A DNA stretch of 64,000 bases from Chiloscyllium plagiosum (lineage: Eukaryota), in NCBI RefSeq assembly GCF_004010195.1, contig NC_057719.1, positions 15,624,257-15,688,256 on the forward strand. The letters run 5' to 3'. The notes under the pieces were generated by a model, which was not told the origin of the DNA, searched no databases, and saw nothing but the letters and a program-made list of their open reading frames with translations. Shown here in pieces: positions 2,825 through 64,000 of this stretch; the first letter of the stretch is position 1; each line of letters starts with the position of its first letter. Position numbers and translations under genes: made by a program.

Positions 2825-2833
2825 AAAGGATAC
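2825..2833 (-). other. PROX2: U12-type (minor spliceosome) 5' splice site GTATCCTTT
   Basis: Exact match to the U12 donor consensus RTATCCTTT at the point where prospero homology stops. Confidence 0.9.
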
Positions 2834-4444
2834 ATTAACTGATTTGAATGGAGTGACATCTTCCATGGAATGCAACTCTCCACGTTCAGACTTAATGCGA
2901 GAAAGACAGAGATTCTCTGCTGGACTTCGACCTAATTGTGGGAACGGCTGTTCTGCCATATGATGGGAGATAACCTTCGATCTCATTTTGACTGCATCCC
3001 ATGAAGGAGGCGTTGATTCAGAAGATGAATCCTTTTCAGTAGCTGAGAGGCAATGTCTTATGTCATTGTGTGCACCATATCTCAATAGAGGTTCAGGCAA
3101 TTCAGTCAGAGGCATCTGCGCGCCTAACGCTAATGATAAAGGTATCTTGGTGTTAGGCATTTGGCATGCCTGTTTAATAACAGAGTTACCAATGCTAGAT
3201 TGGTTTTGGGATGATTTTCTCACTACTAATGGTATTGCTTCTGTCTGATCCTGAATGTCATAGATAGAAGGGCTTTGAGAGTTGTCATAACATCTGCGTA
3301 TCGTCATTGAATCTTGAGAGTGGCGAAGGTCATGACTGGCCATCCTCAAGTTTGAGTTCTCATTAGGCATGAGACCCTTAGGCAGAGAGGCTGGCAAGCT
3401 TTGAAATGCTTGGGAAGAGACGTTTGAAGGTTTCACAGAGAACAACTGCACTGCTGAATCTACAATGTGAGCTACTGCGTTGGTTAATTCATATTTAAGG
3501 GCGTCTGCAAGATAGCCACCCTTGACAAGAGAGAACGAAAAATGTGTATGATTGTTGAATTTCCTGTCTACATCGTGATGTTTGTTTGCATCTTTTGGCA
3601 TTGTCAGTTCTTTTTCTTGGCCAAACGATTGAGCACAGTCATAACCTTGGTCCATTTCTGAAAGGCATCTTTCTAGAGTATTTTCTCCATTCTCCCCATT
3701 GCAGTCAGGACCACCCAAATGGAAGCTGTAATCAGAAGTGTCCCCCTGGTCCTCTTGTTCAGACTCACTGGCATCATACATCTGGAAAAACTTTTCTTGA
3801 AGTTCAAGGAGTTTTCCCTGCATATCCTGTAACTGCTGCTTTAATTTATGACATTCCCGTCTCTTGTGATTCTTGAGTGATGCAGTTAATTTGGGAAATT
3901 TCCAGGGATTCTCCTGCTTTTGCTGTTGTTGAGGAAGTCTCTGCTTCCGTTTATTCTCTTTGTATCTATCTCCCAAAATTCCAGGTCGTTGGCAACAGTC
4001 CCTCTCAAGCTCACTGTTGAGGATGGTGTTCGGAGAACTGCTCATTCCTCGGATGATGTTCTCTACTCTTGCCCTCTTTGCTTGCAAATGTTTGTCGAGC
4101 AATCGGTCCCCTTCAGTGTTGGTTGAAATATGGTACTGACTGAAAGGCGAGCCAAGGTCCTGTACACTATCTTTGGAGCAGTCACTGCTTCTGTCCTCCT
4201 GAAATGATTCTGCAGTGGAATGGGACAGATTCCTTGACGAGAAGTCAAAGTCTTGAGTTGTTAAACTATTTTTCTTGGTAGCTTTGCCCAGAAAATGAGA
4301 AATGATAGCCCTGCTGGAATGGGATGGCACAGAATCCTCAAAAGCATTTCTTTTCAGGTGCACAGAGAGCTGATTTGTTTTGTCTCCTTCTGCGTAGCAG
4401 CTGCTGGAACTTTGCATTTCCTGTTTGGATATGTTGTGGTTCAT
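2834..4444 (-). CDS. PROX2: Prospero homeobox protein 2, first (large) coding exon, 537 codons; downstream homeo-prospero exons lie outside the window
   Basis: The translation has prospero-family blocks AKRARVENIIRGM, YKENKRKQRLPQQQQ, LKQQLQDMQ..LLELQEKFFQMYD, LKYEL, DQTEAIPLVVRK and LSRIKSE. First ATG is at 4444-4442 (the ORF-track start at 4456 is TTG), with an in-frame TGA upstream at 4528-4526. The exon ends phase 0 at ...PFKSVN|GTATCCTTT. PROX2 rather than PROX1 is inferred from head-to-head synteny with DLST. Confidence 0.9.
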
Positions 4445-4604
4445 TGCATAGATCAAGGGGGCTTGGACACAGGACTCAAAACAGTTCCTGACTTTTGTTG
4501 CAAAGTTTAAAGTTAAAAGAAGGTATCAAGCCTAGTATTCAGGCAATCCGATTAAGTCAAAATACTACTGACACAGTCTTTCGAAACAGCTAGAGGTCTG
4601 GATC
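4445..4604 (-). other. PROX2: 5' UTR part of the PROX2 exon, following a splice acceptor
   Basis: Minus strand reads ctcactcttctcttttattatccAG|GATCC: a polypyrimidine tract with AG at 4606-4605, 160 nt upstream of the ATG. Confidence 0.6.
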
Positions 4605-6270: not shown

Positions 6271-6958
6271 GTTATTACTGAAGGATTGAATTATTTCCAT
6301 TTTTAGCAGAGCACAGGGATGCCTTCAAATACATCTCAATCTCCCTCTTGTTCTCCCATTCAAAACTTGCCCCTAATTCACACTACTTGCAAACCAACTT
6401 GCTCTAATTATCAAACAGGTATCGTTGTCAGTTGAAAATTGAAGTTACATTAAATGGAGAAAGACTCTCACTTCATGCTGTTCTTTCAGTCTTCAACCAG
6501 GCAAACACATTTGGAAATGTGACTCTCTCCTTTGTAAAATATTCTTAATGTTATTTCATTCCAATGAACCTTTTGCGATGTACTTTAAGTATATTTAACT
6601 TAAACTTTACAATGCCTGTCTGTCTCAGAGTAGCTTTCATAATTAAGACACTCCTTAAAACCTACCTTTTTAGTCCAGCTTTGGTAACTCAGTACCTTAA
6701 TTATAAAATTAATAAGGCTCTAATATCCCATTTTTCAATTCAGACTCGAATGTTGTCTTATAAATGCCTCTGTAGGTATCCATTTCATTCAGACAAAGAT
6801 AATTGTTGCACCTTCTTTCACAAAAATACTGAACATAAGTTCTGCAGGTTAATGAAAAATATTCCATCAGTACAACTGACTGACTGGTACTGGTTTATGT
6901 TATTGTGGTCAGACTGTATAATCCAAACTAAGCTGGAGACAGCTCTGGGCAAAAATAT

Positions 6959-7032
6959 GCCTGACCTGCTGCGCTTTTCCAGCAACACATTTCCAGCTCT
7001 GATCTCCAGCATCTGCAGACCTCACTTTCTCC
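6959..7032 (+). mobile_element. Truncated Penelope-type terminal unit between 50-bp direct repeats
   Basis: Matches the 3' part of the 15142 and 53600 copies; identical flanks at 6909-6958 and 7033-7082. Confidence 0.85.
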
Positions 7033-8939
7033 TCAGACTGTATAATCCAAACTAAGCTGGAGACAGCTCTGGGCAAAAATATCAACTTCAACTTCTGGCT
7101 TTTGGGAAGGGATGACATTTTCAAATATAATGATAACTCAGTTGACAAATATGTTCATGTTATTGCAAAAATACGATCTTTTATCAATCTTTGACTTCTT
7201 TGAATCCTCTGCTTTGGTATTTAAAATGAAGTTCTTGAGAAAAAATGGCAATTGGAGAAAGATAATTCAGAAAACATTGAGTGATTTGATGGAACCTATG
7301 GCTCTTGTCTTGTTGTACAATTGCAGGCATGGGTTTATATTAGGAAAGCTCATTATAAATGTGAATATAGGACTTTAGCAGTGGGAATTCTTAGGAACTG
7401 TGACAAAAAAAAATAAGATGACATAAAAATAGAAAATGCGACAAATACTTAGCAGGCCAGCTTGTATCTATGGAGAGGGAAATACGTAACAATTCAAGTT
7501 CATGATCTTTCATCAGATAAAGGTGGTGGTGTTGTGCAATCAGGAGATGTTGATAAGATGGAACTCAGAAGGGAGAGGGAGGGAGTCAAGATTTCGGGCA
7601 GAGGGAGGGATGAAGAGACATTTCAGTCAGGATCTATTTCTTAACTCCATCGCAGAATCAGTTTCACTATGCTGTACATTTGATCAAGAGGACAGCTAAT
7701 CTCCTCAGGAACGTTTCGATCAACAGTCATTCCCTCTCACGAGCAGCAGAACAAAATTAACTCAGATAATGGATGACACACCTTCTGTTATTCTCCTTTG
7801 ATTGGGGAAAATTCCATTCGGTGTCTTCTGGCAACAGTACAGCTCTGTTATTTGGTTTACTGCAACACACATTGGAACTAAATTGGACCATTCCATGTTA
7901 GGAAGCTTTTTTGTTCCAGCCATTAGTCTCAACAATAAAAGGTAATTAGCTTTTGAGTTCCTGTACAGATCTTACAAAAGCCACTGTTATGAATCCATTT
8001 TATGACTTTGATTTTTGTTTTCCTGCTCTAAATGCAATTGTCTATTGTATCAAGCCTGTCGCTGATAAAAGAAAGTCAAAGGGGTAGAAAGATCCACTTG
8101 TCCCATTTTTACTCACTGATGTGTCTCTCCTCCTGGACTGGATCTAAACATATTTGAAAAAGCCTAAAGCACTTTTTTTCTAATACTATGAGGCAGATTA
8201 TTTCAAACATTTATCATTTTTGAGTAAAAATTTATTTCCAAATACATTGCAATTTCAAATTTATCTTATGCATATTTAAATTTATGCCCTTTGATCCTAC
8301 CAGCCTAATTCATTTTCAAGTATTACTTCTTGGTTTACTTAATCTATACTATGTAATGTGCTGTACATCGCAATAGGTCCTTCCCTTAACATGGTTTGAT
8401 CTCAATAAATAATATTTTCTATGACTAGCCAGGCAAACCTATTTCCAATTTCGACGAAGATGAACCTTTAAGCAGAGTATAACATTCAGAGCTGAACAAT
8501 AACATACATTTGTTACTAATAAATGCACTGAATATTGCACTACCTAAATCTTTTGAACAGATGAATAGCTCAGCATGCAAACCACAAAACACATTTATTA
8601 GAAATATTAATTGTAAGAATTAAGTAAAATGGCAGATTTTACTACATTACGTGACATCATAATTCCCAAGTGGCTTGTTTGAAACAACAACAATTAGGAA
8701 CGTTTTATCAGTTTTCTGTTGTACTTTATTGTTGGTTATTTGTTCATATGATGTGGGCTAGCAGGTATAGTCCATCCAAAATTATGTTGGAGAAAATGGC
8801 GATGAACTGCCTTCTTGAACTGCTTCAGTCCTTTGAACAGCAGGTTTCCTTGTTAAAAATTTTAGGAGGAGACTAATTCACATTCCATGTTTGCCTCCAT
8901 CTCAACAGTAGTACAGCAAAAATGTGATGTTGTGAGGTG

Positions 8940-13479: not shown

Positions 13480-14370
13480 CCTCTTGCTTCAGAGTCTCAC
13501 TTAAGGCTCAGGACACACTCTAGGATTGGAGTACAAAAGGCTGATACTCCAATGCCGTATGGAATGCAGGATTCCCCTTTAAGAAGATGAGAGTTGAAGC
13601 AAGGAGACCAAACAACTATGGAGGCTGGAAATCAGAAATGTAAACCAAATTTGCTGGGAAAACTCAGCAGATCTGGCAGTATTTGTGGAGAGAAATCAGA
13701 AACGTTTCGGGACTGATCTGAAGAATGGGTCATTGGACCCGAAACATTAATTCTGTTTCCTCTCCATGAAGGAAGGCCTTGTTTGTCCTCTCAACTGGAT
13801 GCAAAATAAAACCATGGCACCATTTTGAAGAACAGGGGAGTTGTGCCTGATGTTCTAACTAATCTTTATCCCTCAATCAAAATCACAAACATACATTTCA
13901 TATGAACATATGAGTGAAGCTCAGAAGTGTATCAATTAGACCCCCAGATCTCTTCTACTGAACAATATGATCATGGTTGGTCTGATCCATCCACATTTCC
14001 ATAACCTTTCACTCCCCCAAGAATCTATCTATCTCTGTCTTTAATATATTCTAGGAGTCTGCTTCCACTACCATTTGAGGAAAAAATTTCCAAAGATTCA
14101 CGACACGGAGAAAAAGATTCTGCTCATCTGTCTTAAATAGGTGACCCTTTATTTTTAAACAGTGACCTGTAGAACTAGATTCTTCTACAAGGGGAAAAGT
14201 CCTTTCCAAATGCACTTTGTCAAGACTCCTGAAGATCTAATCTATTTCTGATATATTATCTGGTCATTGCACATTTGTATTTGTGGGAGCTTGCTATGTG
14301 CAAGTTAGCTGCCATGGTTCCTACACTGAACAATGTCTTCACTTTAAAAGTAAATGATTGGTCATAAATA
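13480..14370 (+). mobile_element. DeuSINE-like SINE (SacSINE1/AmnSINE-type), interrupted by a Penelope-type unit (about 13605-13768) and a minus-strand CR1 fragment (about 13900-14245)
   Basis: Deu-like core ccatggcaccattttgaagaacaggggagtt...tttatccctcaa and tail gtgggagcttgctatgtgcaagttagctgcc. Related copies at about 20900-21270 (-), 29770-30050 (-), 41050-41375 (-) and 60440-60790 (+). Confidence 0.55.
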
Positions 14371-15141
14371 AATGTAGGATCACAAAATGGCTTCAGATAA
14401 TAATTCAATTCCACTTTGAAAACCAGAGTGAATCTGTCTCCGACACACTCTCAGAATGGTACATTCCATTTCCAAACAACTCACTGCATAAAAGATTTTT
14501 TTGGTATGCCAGCTTTGGTTCTTTAACCAATCACCTTAAATTGGGATTCTGGGTTCATGACTAGTGGGACTTGCTGTGTGCAAGTTAGCTGCCATGGTTT
14601 CTACAGTGAGACCAGTTTCTCATTTCCAGGATTCTTTCCTTGTGGTTTTGAAAACCATTATCAGATCTTCAGTCAACTTTCTTTTCCTTTAGGAGAACAC
14701 TCCCCACTGCCCCCCCCCCCAGCTTTTCAGTCTATGAAAGAAGTAGAAGTCTCTCATGTCTAGAGCCATTTACATACATCTTTTCTGGATCTGCTCTGAA
14801 GTTTTCAGATCCTTCCTGAAGTGTATGCCTAATCTCTGTCTCATTCACAGAGTTCATGATGCTACATGCATTATTAACCACTTCCTCAATCTGCCCTACC
14901 ATCTTCAATGACAGTCACCCAATCTCTCGTTATTCTCTACTTCCTTTGCAATTGTATTGTCTACATTGTCTCAACTTAATTGTATGGTCAAAGCATATCA
15001 TTTCACACTTCTCAACATTAAATGTCATCTGTGAAACATATCAATAACATTATGAATCCACAAAAACTTCCATGTTTTGTGACACCTGCAAATGTGTGTT
15101 GCACTAGTACAGATTGTCAAAAGCTGGGGTCCTTATATTGA

Positions 15142-15267
15142 TTCCTGAAGAAGGGCTTCTGCCCGAATCATCGATTCTCCTTCTCCTTGGATGCTACCTG
15201 ACCTGCTGCGCTTTTCCAGCAACACATTTTTAAGCTCTGATCTCCAGCATCTGCAGTCCTCACTTTC
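15142..15267 (+). mobile_element. Penelope-type terminal unit with a 12-bp target duplication
   Basis: tccttatattga at 15130-15141 and 15268-15279; begins ttcCTGAAGAagggcttctgcccGAAT (core mutated). Confidence 0.85.
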
Positions 15268-16109
15268 TCCTTATATTGACCCCTAGGGAACCCCATTATG
15301 TACTTTCTTCCAGTCTAAATGAAACCTTCATCACTATTTCCTGTTCCCTATAGGGAAACCACAGATCTAAATCCATGGTCTCCTCTATTCCCTGGGTTTC
15401 AGGTCTGCTGATAGGCTGCCATGTGTCACTTTATCAAACACCATCCATGTATACAGAATATGATCTGCCTTATTCTTATCAACTCTTCTTGCCGTCTCAT
15501 CAAGAAGAAAACTCAATCAAGTTAATTAAACAATTAACAAATGTCCTTAAAACAAATCCATTGTGCTTTCCTTTCATTAATCCACAGTGCCCATTTCATC
15601 AGGGATTCTCATTTTCCTCCAGGGAGGCTGGACTGACTGACCCTTAGCCTGACACCCTCTTCTCAATACAGATGCCACATTTGCAATTTTCCAGTTCTTT
15701 GACAGCACTCCATATCCAAACAAGTCTTGTTGTTGCAAATGCCTTTGGGTCTTCCTGTATAAAAGGCAAATTTTTGCTTCCTTTTTGTTGCAAACTTTCC
15801 TATGAATGAGACAGTGAAGAGATTAGATGATCCTTGGCTCTGCAGGGAAAAAGATACTGAGCTCCTTTGGCTACATCTGAAGCGACAGCAGGATATTCAA
15901 CATGGGAAACTACACTTTCAAAACACATGGACTGAGACATAATTCCCACCACTTTCAAAGCACAAAATTAAAATTAGGCAGAATGACTAAACTACAATTG
16001 TGCCAATGAATAAGAAAAAATATTAATAAAATAATCAGAAATATCAAGAAACTATTCACATTCCCTGAAACAAAGCCCAGTGCAAGAGAGCACTCTGTTC
16101 TGAAGAAGG

Positions 16110-16460: not shown

Positions 16461-18562
16461 AAAGTGAACACTGCAGATGCTAGAGATCAGAGTCGAAGAG
16501 TGTTGTGCTGGAAAAGCACAGCCAGTCAGTCACCTTGTTGGCAGACTGAGTTTATCCAATTGCTAAACTGGGAGGGTTTCAGGGTTTGTTTTTTGCTACA
16601 TTAGGGGATTTGAGCAATGATTGTCACCACATCTTTCAGTTCTGAAGAAGGTCATGCGGCTTCAAAATTAACTTCACAACTGCTTGCAGATCTGCTGAGG
16701 TATCTCTCTCTCTCTGTCTGCAGTCATTTCCGTATCTGTTTTAGGAATGTTACAGTTGGTATCTGTATTGCTGGGCTGGAAGGGACAAACTGCCCATTAG
16801 ACTGGGTCTTGCTATCTGAACTTCTCTATCCCGGACGCACGAAGATAAAATAAACTTAAACACGGTAGTCTGCTTTCAAATGACACACAATGCCAAAGAT
16901 GTATGCATATACAAACAGCCGTTTCTTCCCTCCAGCAGAAATCCCCAAACTTGCAGCAACAAGGTAACAAATTGCTGGAGAAATCATGCTCAGAGAAAAA
17001 CAGAATCAACATTTCAAACCCTTCTTCAGTACCCTACACTCGCAGCTTGGACTGGATGGAAGAGGAGGTGTTGAAGAGTTTGATGAGGGGGAACAATAAA
17101 TAATTCAGACTCGAGGCTGTTCTAACATTCTGTCTCTAAAATCCTAACCCAGGCACAGTACCAAGCTAAAATTTGAATAAAGAAATTAAGCTTTCTATTC
17201 TATTTGACCACAGCACTGAAGCTGTTGTTAACCTCACATCTAGAACCAGATTTTGCAGTGCAGGTTGAAAATAGTATCCAATTGTTTGTTTCAAATATCA
17301 TAAAGATCATAACATTTAAATAAGTTTTATGAAGGAACAAAAAACTTCTTTTTGCACGTGTTTACGATATTTAAAATTTGAAAACAATACATGTACAGGC
17401 TACTCCGTGATGACTCTCCTTATATAAAAGGATTCAGTTTTATGTCTGACATTCCTAATGTTTAAGTTGGAATTCTTGATGTCTGCATTCGCCGTCCTTG
17501 TATAAGGTGTGACAAAATGCGGAGCTTTATTTCAATTTTAAAATCGTGACCTCAACTGCTCCGAAATTGTTTGTAAAATGCAATAGGTAAGCAACAGTTT
17601 GTGGCTCATCCTCCCTAATAACGAAGAAAACCTGCAATTACTAAAAAAAAGGTTTCAAAACGGGCTGATAGCCCTGCGCCTCTCCGCGTTGACTTGCTAC
17701 AGATACTGTATATCGATCCCATTATAGACTTAATTATTCTTGCCTTAAAAGATATCCACTAGACCACAATTCGAAATAATATTGTTCAATGGAAGGCTCA
17801 AAGGTACTATTTTAAAACAGTTAGCTATAGTCGCCCAAATAAATACATTTCAAATGATTTTAAGAATTCTAAGTGCATCAACGAAATCTTGCAAGCAGAC
17901 AGCTTCTGCAGTCCAAATGTATTCCCCCGGAACATTTCAAATAGTGTTGAACAATAATAAAATCTGCAAAAAAATGGCCAGAAAGAAATAAACACACACC
18001 GGTTCTAGCCAGGAGTGTTAACTTGTATTTTCTTTATTGGCAATGGAAGAAACTTTTAAGCATCTAAGGCTTTCTTTTAAAAAGAATAAATTCCATTGAA
18101 TAAAGAAGGCGTAATTTCATTAATGTATACGCGAAACAACTTTATGAAAATGATTGATTTGCCAGCGAGTCATCCGCATAAACCTTGTTTGATATCTGTA
18201 CTCAAAATCAACTTTCACTCACAACGTAATGGAGTTTTAAAAATCAGAAAACGCAACATGGTAAAGAAGTTATTTGTTCCCAAGAATAATCTGAGTTTTA
18301 AAGAAAAAGATTGGTCCAAATGAGATTGGGCATTAGTTGAATTTATGCCGTCGCTAAGTGGGAAACGAATGCCGGGTGATGTCTTGCAATTATTAATGAG
18401 AACAAGTACCTTGAGATATCTTTATAATCATTAACATAGAAACACAGCCAAGAGAAGTCACTGAAAATTTTATCTTGTTAAAATGGTCTTACAAATAGAG
18501 GGGAAAATCTCACAGTCACTTTTCCCTAATCTCACAAATTTGCCAGATTCACTTTAGCAACT

Positions 18563-23335: not shown

Positions 23336-26300
23336 GGGAGGCAATCGCATAGTGGTATTATCGCTCGACTATTAATCCAGAAACCCAGAATAATGTTCTG
23401 AGGACCTGGGTTCCATGGCAGATGGTGGAATTTGAATTCATTAAAAAAAATCTGGAATTAATGGTCGACTGATAACCACGAAACCATGACGTAAAAACAA
23501 TGACTGCAGATGCTGGAGACCAGATTCTGGATTAGTGGTGCTGGAAGAGCACAGCAGTTCAGGCAACATCCGAGGAGCAGTAAAATCGATGTTTCGGGCA
23601 AAAGCCCTTCATCCTGATGATGGGCTTTTGCTCGAAACGTCGATTTTACTGCTCCTCGGATGCTGCCTGAACTGCTGTGCTCTTCCAGCACCACTAATCC
23701 AGAACCATGAAACCATTGTCAATTGTCGGAAAAATCCATCTGGTTCTCTAATGTTCCTTAGCGAAGGAAATCTGCCATCCTTACCTAGTCTGGTCTACAT
23801 GTGACTCCACAGCCACAGCAATGTAGTCAACTCTTAGCTGCCCTCTGATATGGCCTAGCAAGTCACTCATATTTGTATCAATCGCTAGAAAGTCACAACA
23901 AAGGAATCAACCAGACAGGCAACCTGGCATCAACCTTGGAACCAGAAAAGATAACAGCAAAAACATAAACAGTCCTGTCGACCGTGCAAAGTCTCCTTAC
24001 CAATATCTCTTGGCTAGTGCTGAAATTGGGAGAGCTGTCTCATAGACTAGTCAAGCAACAGTCTGACATAGTCATTCTTATGGAATCATACCTTACTGAT
24101 AACACCCTAGAGACCACCATTACCATTCCTAGATATGTCCTGCCCCACTGGCAGGACAGACCCAGCAGAGGTAGCACAGTGGTGTACAGTTGGAAGGGAG
24201 TTGCCCTGGGAGTCCTTGGCATCGACTCCCGACCCCATGAAATCTCATGGCGTCAGATTAAATATGGGCAAGGAAACCCCTTGCTGGTTACCATGTACCG
24301 TCCTCCTTTGGCTAATGAATCAGTACTCCTCCATGTTGAACAACGCTTGGAGGAAGCACTGAGGGTGGCAAAGGCACAAAATGTACTCTGGTTGGAGGAT
24401 TTCAATGTCCACCACCAAGAGTGGCTTGGCAGTAGCATTATTGATCGAGCTGGTCAGGTCCTAAAGGATATGACAGCTAGACTGGGTCTGCGGCAGGTGT
24501 TGAAGGAACCAACGAGGAAAAAAACATACTTGACCTCATCCTTACTAATCTGCCAGCTGCAGAAGCATCTGTCCATGACAGTATAGGTGAAAGTGATCAC
24601 CTCACTGTCCTTGTGGAGACAAAGTCCTACCTTCACATTGTTGTGTGGCGCTATCACTGTGCAAAATGGGCCAGACTTCAAACCGATCTAGCAACTCAAG
24701 ACTGCGCATCCATGAGGTGCTGTGGGCCATCAACCGCAGCAGAACTTTACTCTAGCACAATCTGCAACCTTGTGGCCTGGCATATTCCCCACTCAACCAT
24801 TACTGTCAAGCCAGGGGATCAACCCTGGTTCACTGGAGTGTGCCGAAGGGCATGCCAAGAGCAACATCACGCATTCCTAACAATGAGGTGTCAACCTGCT
24901 TAAGTTACTGAACAGGACTACTTGCATGCCAAATGGCATAACCAGCAAGTGATAGACAGAGTTAAGCAATCCAACAACCAATGGATCAGATCTAAGCTCT
25001 GCAGTCCTTCCACATCCAGTCATGAATGGTAGTGGACAATTAAACAACTCATGGGAGTAGGAGGCTGCACAAATATCTCCATCCTTGGTGATGGAGAAGC
25101 CCAGCACTTGAGTGCAAAAGATAAGGCTGATGCATTCACAACGATCTTCAGTCAGAAGTGCTGAGTGGATGATCCACCTTGGGCTGCTCCAGTGGTCCCC
25201 AGCATCATGGATACCAGTCTCCAGCCAATTCACTTCACACCATATGATATCAAGAAACAGCTGGAACACTGGATACAGCAAAGGCAATGGGCTTTGATAA
25301 CATTCCAGCAAGAGGACTGAACACGTGCTTCAGGACTTGCCACTCCCCTATCCAAGCTATTCCAGTACAGTTACAGCACTGGCATCTACCCGACAACATG
25401 GAAAACTATCCAGGCATGTCCTGTGCATAAAAAGTAGGACAAATTCAACACTGCTTATTACCGTCCAATCAGTCTACTGTCCATCAGTAAAGTGACGTAA
25501 GGGGTCATCAACAGTGCTATCAAGCTGCACCTTCTCAGCAACAACCTGCTCCATGATTCCTAGTTTGGGTTTTGCCGGGATCACTCAGCTCCTGGTCTCA
25601 TTACAGCCTTGGTTCAAACATGAACAAAAGAGCTGAATTCCAGAGATGAGGTGATTGTGACCCTTGACACCAAGGCTGCATTTGACAGAGTATGGCATCA
25701 CGGAGCCCTGGCAAAACTGGAGTCAATGGATATCAGGGAGCAAACACTCTGCTGGCTGGAGTTGTACCTGGCACAAGGGAAAATGGTTGTGGAGGGTCAG
25801 TCATCTCAGCTCCAGGGCATCTCTGCAGGAGTCTTTCAGGGTAGTGTCCTTGGCCCAGCAATCTTCAGCTGCTTTCCCTTTGTCAGAAGGTCAGAAGTGG
25901 GATGTTCACCGATGATTACACAGTGTTCCGCACCATTCATGACTCCCCAGATACTGCTCAAATGCAACAATATCCAGATTGGGCAGACAAGTGGTAAGTA
26001 ACATTCACACCACACAAGTGGCAGACAATGGCCATCACCAATAAGAGACACTCTAACCACCGCCTCTTGACATTCAATGGTAGTACCATCACTGAATCCC
26101 CCATTGTCAACATTCTTGAGGTTACCATTGACCAGAAACTCACCTGGACTCACCACATAAATACAGTGGCTACAAGAACAGGTCAGAGACTAGGGATACT
26201 GCGGCAAGTAACTCATCTCCTGACACCCCAAAGTCTATCCACCACCTACAAGACACAAGTCAAGAGTGATGGAATACTCCCCACTTGCCTAGATGGACGC

Positions 26301-34446: not shown

Positions 34447-34575
34447 ATTCCTGATGAAGAGCTTATGCTCGAAACGTTGATGCTCCTGCTCCTTAGATGC
34501 TTCCTGACCAGCTGGGCTTTTCCAGCACCACATTTTGACTCTGATCTTCAGCATCTGCAGTCCTCACTTTCTCCT
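34447..34575 (+). mobile_element. Penelope-type terminal unit with a hammerhead-like motif at 34451-34478
   Basis: CTGATGA-a-gagc-ttat-gctc-GAAA-cg-TT. Confidence 0.8.
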
Positions 34576-37239: not shown

Positions 37240-37695
37240 CAGCTTGCAGGGACGACCGGACCTCCCAGTCACCGGTCATTTCAATTCCCCCAGCCACTCC
37301 CTTTCTGTCATGGCCATCCTTGATCTCCTCCATTGCCACAATGAACCACATCGCAAATTGGAGGAACAACACCTCATCTTTCACCTGGGCAGCCTACAGC
37401 ATGAGGGACTCAAAATTGAGTTATCTAATTTCAAATAACCTCCCTTCCCAGCCCCTCCCATACCTTCCACTCCTCCCTGCCACCAACAGGATTCATTCCT
37501 CCCATTGACCAACCAGGTCATATGCTCTTCTTGTCTTTACCTATCCCCACCGCCACCCCCTTTATCTGCAGCTCTCCCTACACCCACTCCCAGTCCTGAA
37601 GAAGGGTTACACCCAATATGTCAATTTCTCCACGTCCTGATGCTGCCTGACTTTCGGCCTCCTGCCTGAGCATCTGCAGTTTGTTTTGTCTCCAG
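37240..37695 (+). mobile_element. Penelope-like retroelement 3' end: GIY-YIG endonuclease C-terminus, pyrimidine-rich UTR and terminal unit
   Basis: PVTGHFNSPSHSLSVMAILDLLHCHNEPHRKLEEQHLIFHLGSLQHEGLKIE, stop at 37436-37438, then CTGAAGA-a-gggt-tac-accc at 37596-37614. Confidence 0.85.
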
Positions 37696-40222: not shown

Positions 40223-40334
40223 ACATCAGTGCAGGTTCCTGCTCCGTATGCTGGTATCATCGAGGAGCTCCTGGTACCTGATGGAGGTAAAGTGGAAGGA
40301 GGAACCCCTCTCTTCAAACTCAGGAGGGCAGAAG
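40223..40334 (+). CDS. DLST: DLST exon 7 ([37 protein letters not shown])
   Basis: C-terminal half of the lipoyl domain; 112 nt; AG/GT boundaries. Confidence 0.97.
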
Positions 40335-50780: not shown

Positions 50781-53530
50781 TCATCGAGTCATAGAGATGT
50801 ACAGCACAGAAACAGACCCTTTGGTCCAACTCATCCATTCCAACCCGATATCCCAACCCAATTTAGTCTTATCTGCCAGCACCCAGCCCATATCCCTCCA
50901 AACCCTTTCTATTCATATACCCATCCAGATGCCTTTTAAATGTTGCACTTGTACCAGCCTCCACCACTTCCTCTGGCAGCTCATTCCACACACACACCAC
51001 CCTGTGTGTGAAAAAGATGCCCCTTAGGTCTCTTTTATATTTTTCCATTCTCACCCTAAACCTATGCCCCCTAGTTCTGAACTCCCCCACCCCAGGGAAA
51101 AGACCTTGTCTATTTACTCTATCCTTGTCCCTCATGATTTTATAAACCATTATAAAGGTCACTCATCAGCCCCCGATGCTCCAGGGAAAACAGCTTTAGC
51201 CTATTCAACCTCCTTTTAGCTCAAATGCTCCTACCCTGGCAACATCCTTGTAAATCTTTTCTGAACCCTTTCAAGTTTCACAACATCGTTCTGATAGGAC
51301 AGAGACCAGAATTGCACGCAATATTCCAACAGTGGCCTAACCAATATCCTGTACAACCGCAACATGACCTCCCAACTCCTGTACTCGATACTCGGACCAA
51401 TAAAGGAAAGCCTATCAAACGCATTCTTCACTATCCTATTTACCTGCCACTACATTCAAGGAGCTATGGACCTGCACTCCAAGGTCTCTTTATTCAGCAA
51501 CACTCCCCAGGTCCTTACCATTAAATGTATAAGTTCTGCTAAACTTTGCTTTCCCAAAATGCAGCACCTTGCATTTATCTAAATTAAACTCCATCTGCCA
51601 CTCCTCAGCCCATTGGCTCATCTGATCAAGATCCCATTGTAATCAGAGGTAACCTTCGCTGCCCACTGCACCTCCCACTTTGGTGTCATCAGCAAACTTA
51701 CTAAAAATGTACCTCTTACGCTCGCATCCAAATCATTAATATAAATGACGAAAAGTAGTGGACTCAGCACCGATCATTGTGGCACTCTACTGGTCATAGG
51801 CCTCCAATCTGAAAAACAACCCTCCACCACCACCCTCTGTCTTTTACCTTTGAGCCAGTTCTGTATCCAAATGGCTAGTTCTATTCCATGAGATCTAACC
51901 TTGTTAACCAGTCTCCCATAGGGAATCTTGTCGAACGCCTTACTGAAGTCCATATAGATCACATCTACTGCTCCTCTTTGTTACTTCTTCAAAGAAGTCA
52001 GTCAAGTTTGTGAGACATGATTTCCCACTCACAAAGCCATATTGACTATCCCTAATCAGTTCTTGCCTTTTCAAATACATGTAAATCCTGTCCCTCGGGG
52101 ATTCCCTCCAACAACTTGCCCACCACCATCATCAGGCTCACTGGTCTGTAGTTCCCTGACTTGTCCTTGCCACATTTCTTTAGTGGCACTATGTTAGCCA
52201 ACCTCCAGTCTTCTGGCACCTGACCTGTGACTGTCGATGATATAAATATCACAGCAAGAGGCCCATCAATCACTTCCCTAGCTTCCCCCAGAGTTCTAGG
52301 ATGCACCTGATCAGGTCCTGGGGATTTATATATTTTTATGCGTTTCAAGATATCCAGCACTTCCTCCTGTGTAATATCGACATTTTTCAAGATGTCACCA
52401 TCTATTTCCCTGCATTTGATATCTTTGATGTCCTTTTCCACACTAAACACTGATGTAAAATACTCGTTTAGTATCTCCCCCATCTCCTACGGCTCCACAC
52501 AAAGGCCGCCTTGCTGATCTTTAAGGGGCCCTCTTCTCTCCCTAATTATGCTTTTGTCCTTAATGTATTTGTAAAAACCCTCTTGAGTTTTCCTTAACAC
52601 TATTTTATTAGATTCGATTCCCTACAGTGTGGAAACAGGCTCAACCAGTCCACACAAACCTTCTGAAGAGTAACCCACCCAGACCAATTTCCCTCTGACT
52701 AATGCATCTAGCACTATGGGCAGTATAGCATGGCCAATTCACCTGACGTGCCTTTCCTTTCACCCTAACAGGAATATACTGTCTCTGCACTATCGTTATC
52801 TCATTTCTGAAGGCTTCCCATTTTCCAGCTGTCCCTTTACCTGCTAACATCTGCCCCCAATCAGCTTTTGAAAGTTCTTGCCTAATACTATCAAAATTGG
52901 CCTTTCTCCAATTTATAGTCAGAGTCATAGAATTTAGAACTTCAACTTTTAGATCTGGTCTATCTTTTTCTATCACTATTTTAAAACTAATAGAATTATA
53001 ATCACTGGCCCCAAAGTGCTCCCCTACTGACACCTCAGTATCCTGCCCTGCCATATTTCCCAAGAGTAGGTCAAGTTTTGTATCTTTTCTAGTAGGTACA
53101 TCTAAATACTGAATTAGAAAATTTTCTTGTACATGCTTAACAAATTCCTCTCCATCTAAACCCTTAACACTATGGCAGTCCCAGTCTATGTTTGGAAAGT
53201 TAAAATCCCCTACCATAACCACCCTATTATTCTTACAGGTATTTGAGGTCTCCATACAAGTTTGTTTCTCAGTCTGCAACCTGTCTTTGTACAGGTCACT
53301 TCTACCCCAGAGGAGATTCCAATGATCCAAAAATGTGAATCCTTCTCCCATACACCAGCTCCTCAGCCATGCATTCATCTGGTTAACCTCGTATTCCTAC
53401 CCTCACTAGCTCGCAGCACTGGGAGTAATCCAGATATTACTACTCTCGAGCACCTCCTTTTAAATTCCTGCCTAACTCTCTCTTTTCTGCCTTCAGAATT
53501 TCATCCTTTTCTGTTCCTCTGTCATTGGTT
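50781..53530 (-). mobile_element. Long CR1 LINE with internal deletions: ORF1 esterase remnant, APE, RT and 3' tail
   Basis: TND...ELGRNLK and NAWLRSWC.GEGFTFLDHW (SGNH-like ORF1); VMVGDFNFPNIDW (APE); NYRPVSL and YMDFSKAFDKIP (RT); gactc tail. Confidence 0.92.
52605..52752 (-). mobile_element. HE1-like shark SINE 3' fragment inserted in the CR1
   Basis: Breaks CR1 collinearity; tagcatggccaattcacct and ...ccacactgtagggaatc resemble the recalled HE1 SINE 3' half. Confidence 0.55.
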
Positions 53531-53596
53531 CTGGAAATCTCAACTTCAGCTAACTGCTGGACCAATTTCTTGGGAATCACCTGCTTGAGTTTCATG

Positions 53597-53726
53597 TTGA
53601 TTCCTGATGAAGGGCTTTTGCCCGAAACGTCGATTTTACTGCTCCTCATATGCTGCCTGACCTGCTGTGCTTTTCCAGCACCACTCCAATCTAGACTTTG
53701 ATCTCCAGCATCTGTAGTCCTCACTT
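53597..53726 (+). mobile_element. Penelope-type terminal unit with a 20-bp target duplication
   Basis: tcacctgcttgagttt(c/t)atg at 53577-53596 and 53727-53746. Confidence 0.88.
53600..53635 (+). ncRNA. Minimal type I hammerhead ribozyme motif (best-preserved copy)
   Basis: CUGAUGA (53604-10), A, GGGC-UUUU-GCCC, GAAA (53624-27), CG, UC (53630-31); palindromic ACGU in place of helix III; helix I is very short. Confidence 0.7.
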
Positions 53727-56127
53727 TCACCTGCTTGAGTTTTATGACTGTTTTATTTGAACAGTGTGTAGCTTGGCATTCGTTTGGTTTTCAGTTGGGG
53801 AGTAAAGCCAGGTGAGGAAAAGCTGGCTGACTCAACACAGTCCAGTTTCTGAAGCGCTCTTGTGCTGATGAGACATGATTGTCCTTATGAAGAGCATTGG
53901 AACTTGGAACGAGAGTAGTCACTCGGCCCTTTGAGCCTGCTCTGCCATTTAGTAGATAATGACTGATCTGATTTTAACCTAACTCTACATTCTTGTGTAT
54001 CCCTGATAATCTTTCATCCCCTTGGTTGTTGAAAGTCTATCTACCTTTCTTAAAATATTTAAATATTCTGTATTCTGTGGGTAAACATTTGGAAGATTTC
54101 TTGATGCTGTGTTTCATAAACAAGTTGTGTCTACCAAGACCTGAGAGACAGCTGTCAGTCCAGTGATTGATAGGCATTTGAACATGTTGCACTGCAGACA
54201 CCCCTTTCTCCCCTCCAGGAGCTAACCATTATTAGCCTAAAGTGTTTCTTCCCAAAGTGAATCTCTGCCAAAGAAATCCTTTTTCCCCCTTTACTATCTG
54301 CATGTGTGCACTTTGTTTTGGGCTATTTCGTAAAGGCAACATTTATTTTCCTATTACAAACTCTTTTAATCAGATTTTCAATCTTTGTGGAATATGTTTT
54401 TTGTTTTCTAATAAATCAGTAATTTTCTCTTTATTAAAGAAACTTGACAGATTATTTTTTTAATTGTTACTTATGTTACATGGGGTGGTTAGACTAAAGA
54501 GTTCTGTCCTCTCATTTCTCTTGTAACACTACTCAACTGCACTGAGAAGAGCTAGGAATGAATACTCCTTCAGCTGCACTGTCCTGGTAAGCAATTGTAG
54601 CAGCAACCACCTCCTTTTAGAGGTGGTGTTGGAGGTGATATAATAGCAACGTTTAAGTGGTATCTTGACAGCTGTGTGAATAGGCAGGGGAAAAAAAGGA
54701 TATCGACTGTGTGGAGACAAAAGGTTTCAGTTTAGAAAGGAATCATGTGTTAGTGCAGTCCTGATAGGCCGAAGGGCCTGTTCCTGCACTGTACTGTTCT
54801 TTGTTCTAACATAGCAACACAAAAAAAATGAGCACAAGGACCTGCTTTACATAAATGCTCTTTACATTTTTTCATCAAGTCGAATTGTGATTTTTACGTG
54901 ATTAATTTGTATCCTGTGTACTGTAATCCAGTAATTTATACAGAATAACCTTTGCTGTGACGTAATGCAACAAAATTGGAGTGTTACACATCAGATTGTA
55001 GCATTATCAAAATTATATTGTACAGTTTGCAGATATAAATTTCTATTGCAAGTTGGAATGTTTTGTTCCCCATTAGAAGAATTTTTATGAACAATGCCAA
55101 TGACACACAAAAGGATGAGTTTTGGTGAGAGATGAGAAACAAAGCCAAACTAGAAGTGTAATAAAATCATATCTTTAATGACTGGAAACTATTGCTAGAG
55201 TAATGTACATAGGTGACAAGGTCATAAATATTTGCCTTGAGCTGGAAAGACTGAAGAACCGTGCAATTTATTGTGTGATAACTCTAGAGTAAGAAACTGA
55301 AATTCTGCTCAGGTCAAACAGATGTAAATTATAGTGCTGGAGTGGCCATGTATGAATCAAAAGCCTTAAGCTGATTTCATTACTGTGACATTTTAAAAAA
55401 GTAGTTCAAACAATTATAGAAGCCATTCAGATGATAATCAACACAGCACAATGTTATCGAATACACAGCTTTGTACTGAGCTAGAAGTATTTTGCATAGA
55501 AAATGTTGTTCAGCTTCCTCTTCACAAAAGCTTAACATGATATTTAGTGATGGGAGATATGAGGTAAGTAGTCTTGTTAGTCTAACGGCCGAGTTGTCTC
55601 TAAGTGACTGTTTGTTGAGTGAAATTGAAAGTCATTAATGAAAAATAAGAGCTAATAATAACTGTTTGTTTATTAATGTAAGTGAAGTAGAGAATGAAGG
55701 GAGATGCTATTGTGCTTCAATTGAGAAGCCTCCGTATCTTAAAAGCAGGAGATGAATGTGTGCTTTTATTTGCCTACTTCAAATTAATAATATAACAAAG
55801 GACACGAATTCAAATAAAATAATTGTGCTTTACTTAAATCAGAGAAAAAAATTGTTTCATGAAAATAACTGGAGGGTTTCAAGTAAGAAATAAAACTTGA
55901 AAACAGAAGAGACTTCTGATACTTTAAAAGAGCCTTGAGGCCTCCTATAATTATACACACTTGGTTATCTCTACCTGTACGTATCTATGTTACCTTCGTT
56001 TCTCTTCCTAAGAAACTAAGCATCTCTGGTCATTCTTGCTGTTAATCTGCAATTTCTGTGGGTTGGCGCAGAGGAAATACCTTCTAATCTTAAATCTTAC
56101 TAATTCTTCATTTCTAAGTTTAAATTA

Positions 56128-59596: not shown

Positions 59597-59688
59597 ATTC
59601 CTGAAGAAGGGTTTTTGCCAGAAACGTTGATTTTCCTGCTCCTCAGATGCTGGCTGACCTGCTGTGCTTTTCCAGCACCACTCTAATC
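59597..59688 (+). mobile_element. Penelope-type terminal unit with a hammerhead-like motif
   Basis: attcCTGAAGA-a-gggt-tttt-gcca-GAAA-cg-TT, followed by the family body. Confidence 0.8.
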
Positions 59689-61083
59689 AAAACATTGGCT
59701 AGATATGTTCAAACCATTGAACAGTTTAGTAAAGTGTGTTTTCACAATTGAATGAATGCAAGGTTTGTGAAGGCTCTCATTGTCTTTGATATTTTATAAT
59801 GCTGGTCTTACCTTTAAAATTGTTCTTCGAGTTTATCTTGTCATGTGATAGCATCATGAATGTAATTCTGTACTTCTGTTCAATCGCTGGTATATTAGGG
59901 TGTCTATCAGAGATAAGAAACAATTTACCTATTGCCTTACGTTCCCATTTATTAAAGAGAGTAGCTGAAGAAACATGTAACCTTATTTTTGTATCCAGCC
60001 TAGTTAAGTGTAGTCTGGGTTTGTTTTAGCCTTTCAGCAAATCCTTTTTAATCCCATTGATATTATTCTTGTAAATCAGAGATATTAATGAGAAACTACA
60101 GGTTATATGCATCATATGCTGGGAATCCTCTCTCTTAGATCCTGTTGACTAATGATCTACTGGAGGTTTTCAAATTATGACTTGGCTTTATTGGGTAGAA
60201 ATGTGAAAGTGTTCATATTTCAGGGGTGCTCAAATCGAGAGATCATATATGTGGAGTAGTCACTAATAACTTCAACCATTTGGAATAATTGAGGCATATA
60301 ACAAAGATACACTTAAGGGAAAATTAAACAGTATTGTAAAGGAGAAAAAGATAGAGGATATGCTGGTAGGTGGATCAGTTGCACTGTATGCATAGAAACC
60401 ATTCTATGTAATTCTCACTACTTGTGGTTTAAGCCTTGTTCCAGAGATTTTAATGTAATCTAGGACATGATAATGTCAGATTGTATACTCAGCTGTATCA
60501 AGGAAATACACCATTACCAGAGCTGTTGCTGTTTGCAAATCCCTGAAGTCCCATTTGCTCTGTCTGACAAACATTTAGAGTCCTGGTACTATTTAAAGAC
60601 TTAATAGGGTTTTTTTTATTCAATGTCCTGGAGAACATTTATTCCTTGAGCGGCATTACTAAATCAAATTGTTGACTCACTTTTCATATTTTTGTTTGTT
60701 GGACCTTGTGCATAGGTTTGCTAGTACATTGAACTTTATTACTACACCCACCAAACAGTTTTTAAAAACATGTTGTGGTACTTCCAAGATAACATTCGGC
60801 TTTAAAAACTACTGTTATATTGAAAAGCTTTTTCATTGTTACTCTCAATTTATATTGATATTCTTTTGAAAGAGGCATCCGTTGGTTAAAATGGCTTAAC
60901 TCAACTATTTGGATCATTTGTTCTTTTTCATGTTCAAAATACTAAATCATTAGAATTGTGTATTTCTTGTCATGTTAAAAACAAAAAGTTTTCCTGCGGT
61001 ATTGTGTACAATCCAAGTCTCCTCTTTGAGTCATTTTGATACATTATATAAATACGAGGTGATTAATTTTATTTCTGCTGCAG

Positions 61084-62294: not shown

Positions 62295-62935
62295 AGTGTT
62301 GGCAAGGAATTACACCACAGGTGAGCAATAGGTGTCAGACAAAACTATAGCATGATTGGACTGGTGCCTTACACTGTACAGATGAGAGATGATGTAGGAT
62401 AGAGAAAGCTGCAGATTGTCTCTGCCATAATCATTCTAATTACCAAGAGATAATGTTAATTGAAGATGTGCAAATAGCTGAGCCAAGGGTTATGATGGAG
62501 CCTCAGCAGATAAGGATGATCCATAAAGATTCCACATGTACATTAGAGCAAAAGAGCAACAGGATAGAGAGAACAGGGCCCCTTATGGATTGTCGAGGTA
62601 GCCTGTGTCAAACCACAGGAGATATTAAATATGTCGCATCAGTTTTTTATTGTGCAGAAAGGAATGGCAGCTAGATCCTGTTGATAACATTTCAGCATGC
62701 TGGTCCTTCTTGAAACGTATCAATATGCTTTGTGATCTCATCACTCAACATGCCACTTTCAATGATCTATACACTTAGTGTATTTGTCTCTCACTGTTCA
62801 TCTGTCCAGGTGAACTATCTCACATTGTCCTTTTGAAGGAGTAGGATAGGATATAAGATGCAGTTACATAACATGAGGAAAAATGCATGCACAATTGAAG
62901 AACCTAACGCATTTTTGATGAATTTCTTGTTGCAG

Positions 62936-63103
62936 GCTCGTAAAAATGAGCTGGCTATAGAAGACATGGATGGAGGTACTTTCACAATCAGCAATGGAGG
63001 AGTGTTTGGTTCAATGTTTGGGACACCAATCATTAACCCGCCCCAGTCTGCCATTCTTGGCATGCATGCTATTTTTGAAAGACCAGTTGCAGTTAAGGGC
63101 CAG
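62936..63103 (+). CDS. DLST: DLST exon 14 ([44 protein letters not shown]...); the last exon is outside the window
   Basis: [10 protein letters not shown] and [14 protein letters not shown] motifs; 168 nt; CAG|gtgagt donor. Confidence 0.97.
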
Positions 63104-64000
63104 GTGAGTAAAATACAGTTTTGTTTTGATTCCTATATGACTTATTATTGTCAAAAGATTGAAAGTGTTTATTCATTGTGACAGAATAGACTGCAACTTA
63201 CCATCAGAGGTAAAATGTACATTTAGAATATTTAGTAATTCTTGTAATAGATTTGTCTAATTTCTTTGCATCCTCAAGTGGTATTGCCATCATTTTCTAA
63301 CACTGTAGAGATCTCTTGAACCTGACATCTGCAGAGGTGTCCTCTGGAGCATTAATTAATGCACCAGCTTCAAACCCGACTTGATCCCCACTCGAGTGAC
63401 TTAATATGTTTACAGGAATTATACAAACAGGATATAAACAGACAGCATTTGTACAGAATACCTACAGGAAAGTACCAGGTTGTGTAAATCTGAGTCTACT
63501 CCACTGGCAGAAATTCTTTTCAACTGTTGGTTTGGAATTGGGAGCTGATCTTCCTTCTACCTTTACCATTGTTGTACAAGCATATCCCATGGCATATTTC
63601 ATGATGATGTAATAAGGATCTTCACAGTTTAAACCATGTTGGATCCTGAAATTGTAACTCGACTGAAACCAATAAATGTACAAGCCGTGTTGTACTTGAT
63701 GACTGGCCTCCCGAGTTGTGACTTGGTTTTTAATCCAGCTGTTAAGAATTTCACATGAGGTAATTGATGTTAAAAAAAAATTAAAAATTGGTATCAGCAG
63801 CCTGCATTTGTTAAGACACCCTCATCTCCTATCCAGGCCAGTTCTGTAATTTCAACATGTGCTGTTTTAAAAATATAATTACATGTGGAGAGTTACATCC
63901 ACAGAAGTCAAAGTTGAAGGGTTTGTGTTGTCCTGCATGAAGGGAACTGACAGGCCTCCTCTTGATGGTAGAAACATTGCCTTCTCCTGGTGTAAATGCT

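Follow-up and report, generated by a model that had tools for sequence, protein, structure and literature searches.

A hammerhead-bearing repeat unit in a DLST-like gene of the shark Chiloscyllium plagiosum as a probable 5'-truncated copy of a Penelope-like element

The minimal hammerhead ribozyme (min-HHR) was defined by Cervera and de la Pena in 2014 in the pseudo-long terminal repeats (pLTRs) of metazoan Penelope-like elements (PLEs), and passages of the same paper describe it from PLEs of fishes, coelacanth, frogs and reptiles (PMC4209133). PLEs as such are reported from shark and other vertebrate genomes in parts of two further papers (PMC8455134, PMC4350176), while a section of a recent preprint records PLE-related hammerhead repeats in the sole cartilaginous fish sampled (Li, Clavereau and Pollet 2026, 10.64898/2026.07.22.740005). 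Here, we analyse a stretch of 64,000 nucleotides from the shark Chiloscyllium plagiosum (contig NC_057719.1, positions 15,624,257 to 15,688,256, forward strand), hereafter the window, in which a preliminary description had claimed a family of ~130-nt non-autonomous mobile units carrying such a ribozyme with a covarying stem II. We find that the ~131-nt unit at 53597-53727 on the + strand is very probably a retro-copy, dead and 5'-truncated, that derives from the 3' end of a PLE bearing an endonuclease (EN).

Animal non-LTR retrozymes are said to have been the subject of a study by Cervera and de la Pena in 2020 (PMC7229834). Retrozymes consist of head-to-tail tandem units, which are thought to yield circular RNAs according to passages of the preprint named above (10.64898/2026.07.22.740005). 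Insertion itself has been followed in PAc, a Poseidon-clade PLE of Anolis carolinensis, in which the reverse transcriptase (RT) starts at two internal sites bounding a tail, both DNA strands are cut and extended, and the hammerhead lies slightly upstream of the RT start sites (Frangieh et al. 2024, PMC11167929).

The unit and its link to Penelope-like coding sequence

Read directly, the unit is bounded by a 19-nt target-site duplication with one mismatch (Table 1). Other copies in the genome terminate in ...CACTTTC(A/G)CCT, and because of this ...CACCT terminus five bases are possibly element-derived, which would leave as duplication the last 14 nt of the left duplicate (53578-53596). The letters of the unit run ttgattc-CTGATGA-A-GGGC-TTTT-GCCC-GAAA-CG-T-C/GATTTT..., where the slash marks the cut predicted for the ribozyme (after 53631), and are followed by ~95 further bases to ...CAGTCCTCACTTT. 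There is no simple-repeat or A-rich tail, and ARAGORN, with which a tRNA-type head alone was tested, found no tRNA-like head at 53400-53900. Forty scored genome copies, from 1643 first-look candidates, are 92-95% identical to the unit.

Strand and direction of copying can be read from 29 genome copies that were picked solely by the 3'-most 69 nt. The 3' end is identical in 29/29 and the 5' ends differ: 11 lie at unit positions 1-10 with unrelated DNA beyond, 13 are cut at positions 18-63, and five run upstream into common sequence. Constant 3' ends together with variable 5' ends mean that the hammerhead strand is the RNA strand and that copying began at the 3' end, as in target-primed reverse transcription. 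In 13 of the 29 copies a script scored target duplications of 8-15 nt, and in many copies a short inverted duplicate of the 5' part is attached head-to-head (of 14 inverted arms, 10 have their end at unit position 94-107). A second sample comprised 35 incidental copies, i.e., those that happened to fall within the window or in flanks of loci. Their 3' ends fall into the classes 130-134 (n = 12), 121-127 (n = 4), 93-102 (n = 9), 81-87 (n = 9; this class may partly come from a variable stretch ending alignments) and 64 (n = 1). Taken with the ends of the inverted arms, these classes, of which 93-102 and 130-134 are the two main ones, indicate that a piece of ~30 nt is optional at the 3' end. The insertion anatomy of EN-bearing (EN+) PLEs, i.e., 5' truncation, inverted 5' arm, optional tail and target duplication, is present in these copies.

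Junctions of the head-to-head type often lie within the stem II hairpin or beside it, with copies starting at unit positions 18-26, which might mean that the self-complementary GGGC...GCCC helped to bring the two arms together. Examples are the pair at 23502-23703 of the window and the loci L002, L007, L019, L022, L023, L026, L027, L030, L033, L037 and L039. At L055 (G000:C100212), a second, partial copy comes after a long one with its orientation unchanged, which makes a partial tandem of the sort that gives rise to a pseudo-LTR.

The sequence upstream of the unit that is common to 5 of the 29 copies has 5,536 first-look candidates in the genome and, in the longest among 20 loci, reaches ~820 nt 5' of the motif. 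Its open reading frame (ORF) carries CHRRNCKTC and then VIYCIRCSRCSLLYIGETG...REH...HFNSPSHS, and the EN protein has 181,879 first-look genome candidates. At locus L073, an RVT_1 match, an EN match and the unit (89% identity, hammerhead present) follow one another on one strand, the ORF being broken. As a sequence motif, the CX4CXXC linker before the EN points to an element of the Neptune or Nematis type rather than Poseidon, when set against the motif given in passages of PMC8557442. A second, diverged family lies within the window itself, where a remnant of an EN C-terminus (37250-37438) shares 28/59 identical residues with the EN ORF of the first family (BLASTP, E 3e-15); here the order is EN C-terminus, stop codon, a C-rich spacer of 157 nt and the decayed motif at 37596.

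The same order was recovered when copies were chosen by protein. Fifty-two tails (701-nt pieces) were picked by EN protein similarity alone and searched with a strict descriptor, which required both boxes, a bulge of 0-2 nt, 3 bp or more in the stem, pairing at 15.2-16.2, and U plus H. The strict motif occurs on the sense strand in 15/52 tails and on the antisense strand in 0/52, and it starts at piece positions 133-334, which is 73-274 nt past the end of the EN match. Across a sample of 300,735 nt, which is enriched for the ~130-nt family, the descriptor has 38 matches; shuffled sequence gave none in 19 of 20 cases and one match in the remaining one. The identity of the element, its strand and the anatomy of its insertions are shown by the copies. 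In proposing a Penelope origin rather than an ordinary short interspersed element (SINE), the preliminary description was right: long copies reach RT and GIY-YIG sequence, and a tRNA-like head is missing.

Among window ORFs of at least 110 aa, seven of which were scanned, no PLE protein was found by Pfam, two being AP-endonuclease fragments of long interspersed elements (LINEs). A Pfam GIY-YIG search of the whole genome returned one marginal match, and none of six loci (three chosen by RT similarity and three by two-motif spacing) showed a full-length element whose 5' copy of the unit leads into the ORF. The longest apparent PLE frames (at least 600 aa; L072, L131, L132, L133 and L136) span runs of N and hence are not real; the L072 frame, of 670 aa, and the long ones in L131-L133 were accordingly rejected as artefacts of such runs.

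Hammerhead features and compensation in stem II

At the locus, the CUGANGA and GAAA boxes are arranged as in a type I hammerhead. Stem II consists of GGGC (53612-15) and GCCC (53620-23) around a UUUU loop, and the 3' part of the motif is formed by C15.2-G16.2 (53628-29), U16.1 (53630) and C17 (53631). A single unpaired base follows A9, namely A53611; A or U stands at this place in families A, A-d, B and C and in the 37596 motif, and the 13718 motif has two bases there. The G10.1-C11.1 pair (G53612-C53623) is kept in families A, A-d, B, D and E and is G.U in the single family C copy. A helix III loop is absent, and A-CG-U-C at 53627-31 includes the palindrome ACGU (53627-30), in place of which family B has A-GC-U-A. 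In the long genome copies and in the second family of the window, the hammerhead occupies the non-coding end repeat of an RT-encoding PLE. A minimal type I motif with an extra A after A9 and an ACGU palindrome had already been recognised in the preliminary description, and these are features that passages of PMC4209133 list for PLE hammerheads.

The motif is extremely common in the genome. A 27-nt degenerate form has 23,717 matches in 3.56 Gb, and a reversed control pattern has 0. Other families retain the boxes, the bulged base and the palindrome, and differ in stems and tails. Family B (CTGATGA-a-GGAGC-gat-GCTCC-GAAA-GCTA; three copies) has the palindrome AGCU, and family C (CTGATGA-t-GTTACCT-agcc-AGGTAAT-GAAA-CGTC; one copy) has the stem GUUACCU/AGGUAAU. 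A MAFFT alignment of the motifs of six families was structurally inconsistent, as bulges and stem lengths differ, and the pairs were read directly instead. In the 37596 family, U-A stands where family A has C-G in stem II; this comparison is not circular because the family was reached through protein similarity.

Compensation was also measured within the ~130-nt family. The pattern CTGATGAAG-R-GCTTATGC-Y-CGAAACGT, which has the loop TTAT and permits all four combinations at one pair of stem II, has 2,373 genome matches. Among the first 100 of these, the pair is G-C in 72, G.U in 8, A.C in 3 and A-U in 17 (Fisher exact p 1.4e-10). The 17 A-U copies and the window copy at 34447 have additional changes in common beyond the pattern, among them GATTTT to GACTCT and a 2-nt deletion, from which it follows that they descend from a productive master bearing the compensated pair. 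The chance that two among 6-8 diagnostic changes, over ~125 sites, would hit both sides of one of the four stem pairs and restore pairing is ~0.003-0.005. Pairing in stem II has therefore been under selection in one master lineage. As far as a single compensated event in sequence can tell, this argues for selection on the ribozyme fold in active elements. The GAGC/GCTC compensation among the covarying stems of the preliminary description is thus real, whereas the variants at 13727 and 37604 belong to other families.

Conservation points in the same direction. In the 46 of 52 EN-selected tails that were compared, majority agreement at non-CpG positions of the core and stem II is 0.968 vs 0.908 for the rest of the unit (one-sided Mann-Whitney p 0.042). 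CpG positions are the least kept throughout (0.82-0.85).

Within the window, copies were located by BLASTN of the unit against the 64-kb sequence (Table 1). The loose pattern CTGANGA-N(4-30)-GAAA has 16 matches on both strands vs 7.2 +/- 2.75 expected, a number that 1/100 shuffles reaches, and alone is a weak test; its + strand matches at 13718, 23614, 34451, 53604 and 59601 are sites of the preliminary description. When up to 3 mismatches are allowed, the 28-nt family motif has five matches (15145, 23588 on the - strand, 23614, 53604 and 59601) and 0 in 100 shuffles; the 34451 motif differs from it at 4 positions. The seven sites named in the preliminary description are all present and both boxes are kept in five of them, those at 15145 and 37596 being mutated, as that description had allowed. 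Its stem readings GGGC/GCCC, GAGC/GCTC, GGGT/ACCC and GGGTC/GACCC match the sequence. The seven sites do not, however, form one family: five belong to the ~130-nt family, and those at 13718 and 37596 belong to others. No EN similarity was found upstream of the 13718 motif, the upstream ORF included, and the affiliation of this third family with PLEs is putative.

Table 1. Positions of the unit, its copies, related motifs and neighbouring features in the window
Feature	Positions	Strand	Details
Left target-site duplication	53578-53596	.	cacctgcttgagtttcatg; 18/19 bases recur at 53728-53746
PLE end piece	53597-53727	+	from slightly 5' of the hammerhead through the probable element 3' terminus (...CAGTCCTCACTTT)
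Minimal hammerhead motif	53604-53631	+	CUGAUGA 53604-10, bulged A 53611, GAAA 53624-27
Right target-site duplication	53728-53746	.	cacctgcttgagttttatg
GAGC-UUAU-GCUC subfamily copy	34447-34575 (BLASTN span 34447-34571)	+	one stem II pair G-C to A-U
Copy with short 3' end (unit position ~93)	59597-59688 (BLASTN span 59597-59697)	+	stem II closing pair broken (G/A)
Full unit, mutated core	15141-15271 (BLASTN span 15140-15267)	+	motif at 15145 has GAAT for GAAA and CA for CG (CATC); own duplication CCTTATATTGA
Head-to-head pair	23502-23703	.	23502-23613 (-) and 23606-23703 (+; BLASTN 23612-23703), junction at CUGAUGA box
5'-truncated copy, no hammerhead (unit positions 56-134)	6958-7033 (BLASTN 6958-7029)	+	
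5'-truncated copy, no hammerhead (unit positions 56-127)	16463-16532 (BLASTN 16461-16532)	-	
Old copy, 70% identity	44015-44229	-	reaches 149 nt 5' of hammerhead position
EN ORF C-terminus remnant, second family	37250-37438	+	ends in stop codon; tblastn E 5.7e-11
Decayed hammerhead, second family	37596-37622	+	stem II GGGU/ACCC; GAAA to AAUA (AATA in the DNA); 157 nt past EN stop codon
Hammerhead motif, third family	13718-13748	+	2-nt bulge, stem II GGGUC/GACCC, CG decayed to CA
DLST-like exon	40226-40321	+	Biotin_lipoyl 27.8 bits
DLST-like exon	62927-63115	+	2-oxoacid_dh 76 bits; best solved relatives succinyltransferases, E 1e-30
Exo_endo_phos_2 frame (LINE AP-endonuclease)	52641-53396	-	29.4 bits
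Exo_endo_phos_2 frame (LINE AP-endonuclease)	23969-24586	+	30.1 bits
594-aa open frame	2741-4525	-	no Pfam or solved-structure match

Origin of the short copies and rival explanations

The simplest reading is that the short units are 5'-truncated, dead-on-arrival copies of autonomous PLEs. In the long copies the order is RT, CX4CXXC linker, GIY-YIG EN, a non-coding pLTR of ~130-330 nt, a minimal type I hammerhead and ~100-125 nt to the end. The copy at 53597-53727 probably arose by target-primed reverse transcription that started at the element 3' terminus and stopped slightly past the hammerhead. On this account, the hammerhead would belong to the RNA of the master element. Because a helix III loop is absent, the published model calls for a dimer or a protein, and an active fold would accordingly need the ACGU palindrome to pair with a second copy, or an element protein (PMC11167929, and passages of PMC4209133). 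The thousands of scattered single copies, most of them without the motif, would be by-products of which no function is expected. Self-cleavage, with a cut after C53631, is predicted.

A number of observations weigh against an EN-bearing PLE with a functional ribozyme as the source. On the coding side, the Pfam GIY-YIG score on the upstream ORF is sub-threshold (14.9 bits vs a cut-off of 22.6, E 0.035), with a YIGETG...R..EH motif visible, and the RVT_1 match at L073 is barely above its cut-off (30.7 bits vs 29.6, E 3.3e-7). No full-length element with both ends was seen, and the most intact-looking copies contain runs of N. On the ribozyme side, helix I is very weak, with at most C-G, U-A, U.U and A-U between ...AUUC and GAUU..., and further 5' most copies have flanking DNA. 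Most copies are decayed, the strict motif being present in 2/17 aligned units and in the 15/52 tails given above, and the covariation seen across families is partly circular as regards B and C, which were found with a descriptor that demands a stem. The Rfam search suggested in the preliminary description (Hammerhead_1, presumably RF00163) gave nothing at gathering score in the window and no hammerhead at E up to 10 on 53570-53760. Rfam hammerhead models share the catalytic boxes with the unit but presuppose that helix III is closed and helix I longer, and they do not cover the stripped-down minimal form.

Folding predictions belong among these points as well. ViennaRNA predicts stem II but favours its extension, by pairing of UGAUG and CGUCG, into a hairpin that is inactive (-11.4 kcal/mol), and a dimer with two stem II hairpins and an intermolecular ACGU helix reaches -18.9 vs -24.6 kcal/mol for the best dimer. 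The inactive pairing is impossible in family B (GAAAGCUA) and is therefore not conserved. As modelled, thermodynamic folding would appear neither to support nor to exclude the active fold.

Reads were mapped to a 701-nt long copy, L110 (motif at 265-292), from two raw poly(A) single-cell RNA runs labelled with this species, an assembled run and a DNA run. Of the RNA runs, one placed 1,351 reads on L110, with equal depth in both directions and a 5' depth step like that of the DNA; among these reads there is no pile of starts or ends at the predicted cut, in a poly(A) single-cell library ill-suited to showing one. The second raw RNA run (X20) gave no reads on L110, and no listed RNA run contains the window stretch. 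Loose read ends at the unit border without a consensus indicate read-through from many flanks, and no position stood out as a start or end of molecules. As the library type is unsuited to a ribozyme cut, the RNA result says little about cleavage.

The 5' ends of the copies are not spread evenly. Those of the 35 incidental copies include 18 between -2 and +8 of the unit, seven that extend upstream and 10 that are cut deeper. This hot spot, within ~10 nt upstream of the CUGAUGA start or inside it, departs from uniform truncation with p 2e-8 in the 35 copies and p 5e-4 in the 29 copies. Genomic DNA word depth on L110 behaves likewise, at 0.2-0.4 million far upstream and with a step from 1.6 to 7.1 million at the hot spot. 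The hot spot is not the ribozyme cut site, as no copy starts at position 34. It is possible that it reflects a fixed RNA 5' end (a pLTR promoter) with internal RT initiation, or an RT stop at the folded or protein-bound motif.

From this follows a reading of the stubs that we consider possible, if somewhat doubtful, namely that they are a defined side product of the PLE, made by reverse transcription from internal sites ~90-125 nt past the hammerhead, of the kind seen in vitro for the Anolis element, to a fixed RNA 5' end 2-8 nt before CUGAUGA. What fixes that 5' end would be, again tentatively, either the pLTR transcription start or a block by the folded, protein-bound ribozyme. Such a side product fits the 5' hot spot, the two 3' end classes and the DNA depth step, while the RNA reads show read-through from flanks and no transcript starts. 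If it were true, the hammerhead would mark the functional 5' boundary of PLE transcripts or of the ribonucleoprotein (RNP), and tens of thousands of shark stubs would record the start and end of reverse transcription at base resolution.

We think it unlikely, though less so than the alternatives that follow, that the unit is a PLE end piece whose motif is kept for protein or RT binding or folding, or as a passenger, rather than for self-cleavage. Minimal PLE hammerheads cleave poorly in vitro according to passages of PMC4209133. In the Anolis PLE, insertion in vitro is unchanged by ribozyme mutants, cleavage is protein-dependent and no RNA-seq reads end at the cut (PMC11167929). Naiad PLEs thrive without hammerheads, and the authors suggest in the passages at hand that hammerheads may parasitize PLEs (PMC8557442). 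The shark unit, with helix I almost absent, no read ends marking the cut and half of the copies ending at the 5' edge of the motif, as though the RT had often halted there, would agree with such a role. Yet the catalytic boxes, G10.1-C11.1, U16.1-H17 and the palindrome are constant across families with differing stems and tails, which fits a catalytic core and exceeds what hairpin binding needs. Moreover, the Anolis motif does cleave, and its C3 and G8 mutants, taken with the double mutant that compensates them, show the behaviour of a genuine hammerhead (PMC11167929).

The preliminary description had seen the ~130-nt units as non-autonomous, and one could suppose a separate retrozyme-like or SINE-like family with short masters of its own, moved in trans by PLE proteins. 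The excess of 5' starts near the CUGAUGA edge over uniform truncation (18/35 and 11/29 copies) and the 4-fold rise in DNA word depth there would speak for such a family, but deeper truncations inside the unit are also frequent (13/29 and 10/35). Among 18 GAGC-type copies chosen by motif, about half continue into a C-rich pLTR (...CYCTC-ATTCC) and about half begin at the motif. Short and long copies agree in their 3' end and in the changes that are diagnostic of the subfamily, so the short units come from the same lineages as the long ones, and the description as a non-autonomous family does not fit them. Nor does the 130-nt unit carry evidence of a promoter or protein-binding site of its own, or a shown route to transcription as a unit. 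No tandem repeat was found at 53000-54500; the unit stands single between its target duplications, with the window copies dispersed or head-to-head, and being single rather than tandem it is not a retrozyme as published. We regard a separate family as quite improbable.

That the motif is a chance look-alike, i.e., the tail of an ordinary SINE or LINE taken in the wrong orientation, with the 3' hairpin (GGGCAAAAGCCC) as the stem recognised by a LINE reverse transcriptase, deserves hardly any credence: the loose box pattern is enriched merely ~2-fold in the window, Rfam gives no hammerhead match and the two LINE fragments of Table 1 lie nearby, but the constant end is the one distal to the hairpin and the variable end lies at or near it, so that the RNA strand is the hammerhead strand, the antisense strand of the 52 tails has no strict motif, there is no tRNA-like head, and the unit comes after an RT and GIY-YIG ORF and not after an AP-endonuclease LINE.

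Genomic context and comparison with known systems

A DLST-like gene spans at least 23 kb of the window on the + strand, with exons for the lipoyl domain (40226-40321) and the catalytic domain (62927-63115). As its exons are on that strand, the copies at 53604 and 59601 are intronic and in sense orientation, whereas those at 23614 and 34451 lie upstream of the first placed DLST-like exon and are likely to be sense to DLST as well. The statement of the preliminary description that all four are sense to DLST pre-mRNA therefore holds for 53604 and 59601, between or within the span of the + strand exons. Sense intronic stubs such as those in DLST would not be expected to cut host pre-mRNA as isolated monomers. 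Two further features were observed in the neighbourhood. One of the two LINE fragments lies directly upstream of the unit on the opposite strand. The 594-aa open frame is nearest to prospero homeobox 2-like clusters in the ESM Atlas (score 0.94, 215/256 features) and is probably a large exon of a PROX2-like gene adjoining DLST; we take PROX2 and DLST to be neighbours in human.

For annotation, the stubs are to be masked as PLE fragments rather than SINEs. The gain for the ribozyme class is modest in that a shark family of very high copy number is documented. The compensated stem II pair in a productive lineage is non-circular and argues that the fold is under selection in active elements. The pile-up of 5' ends at the ribozyme edge is a cheap and testable lead on the role of PLE hammerheads; it is unmentioned in the passages of PMC4209133, PMC11167929 and PMC8557442 that were compared, no dedicated literature search having been made for it. 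A literature search on shark PLE hammerheads found no paper on them, its one result being a review in which 'shark' describes the shape of the ribozyme, and sharks are not named in the Results, Discussion and bioinformatics Methods of PMC4209133; the shark family, with its 23,717 near-intact motifs, has a very high copy number.

Compared with PAc, the shark copies are alike in that the hammerhead lies ~100-125 nt upstream of the copy ends, that there are two end points ~30 nt apart (the optional tail), that the head-to-head arms fit insertion from both DNA strands, and that no RNA reads end at the cut (PMC11167929). Signatures of the lizard element's insertion in vitro, i.e., two start sites, a tail and priming from both strands, therefore also mark copies in a cartilaginous fish. 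PAc differs in that its ORF begins at stem II and RT starts within the ORF (PMC11167929). In the shark copies that were read, among them the one in the window, all three frames were judged by eye to be closed within ~125 nt past the motif, so the shark ORF cannot run through the hammerhead, unlike that of Anolis.

Retrozymes also carry type I hammerheads related to those of PLE pLTRs, according to passages of the preprint (10.64898/2026.07.22.740005), but each unit of the window stands alone between target duplications, and long copies go on into PLE coding sequence. There is agreement with EN+ PLEs, whose copies, in passages of Craig et al. 2021, are strongly truncated at the 5' side or arranged as partial tandems, have at their 5' end an inverted copy that is itself 5'-truncated, bear a tail of 30-40 bp at one end and carry the hammerhead in the pLTR (PMC8557442).

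The min-HHR is a further close match. As set out in passages of PMC4209133, this form has CUGANGA and GAAA boxes, an unpaired base between A9 and G10.1, the G10.1-C11.1 pair, no helix III loop and a palindromic 15.2-16.2, all as in the shark unit. The same passages describe many consensus families per genome with compensatory changes, and mostly single, scattered motifs of truncated PLEs, at times close together on opposite strands. The shark motif differs in its stem II, which has 4 bp vs 7-8 in Schistosoma and 6 in Drosophila, and in its helix I, which is weaker than the 4-5 bp of published min-HHRs (passages of PMC4209133). The shark units are a very abundant new member of this already described class of PLE hammerheads.

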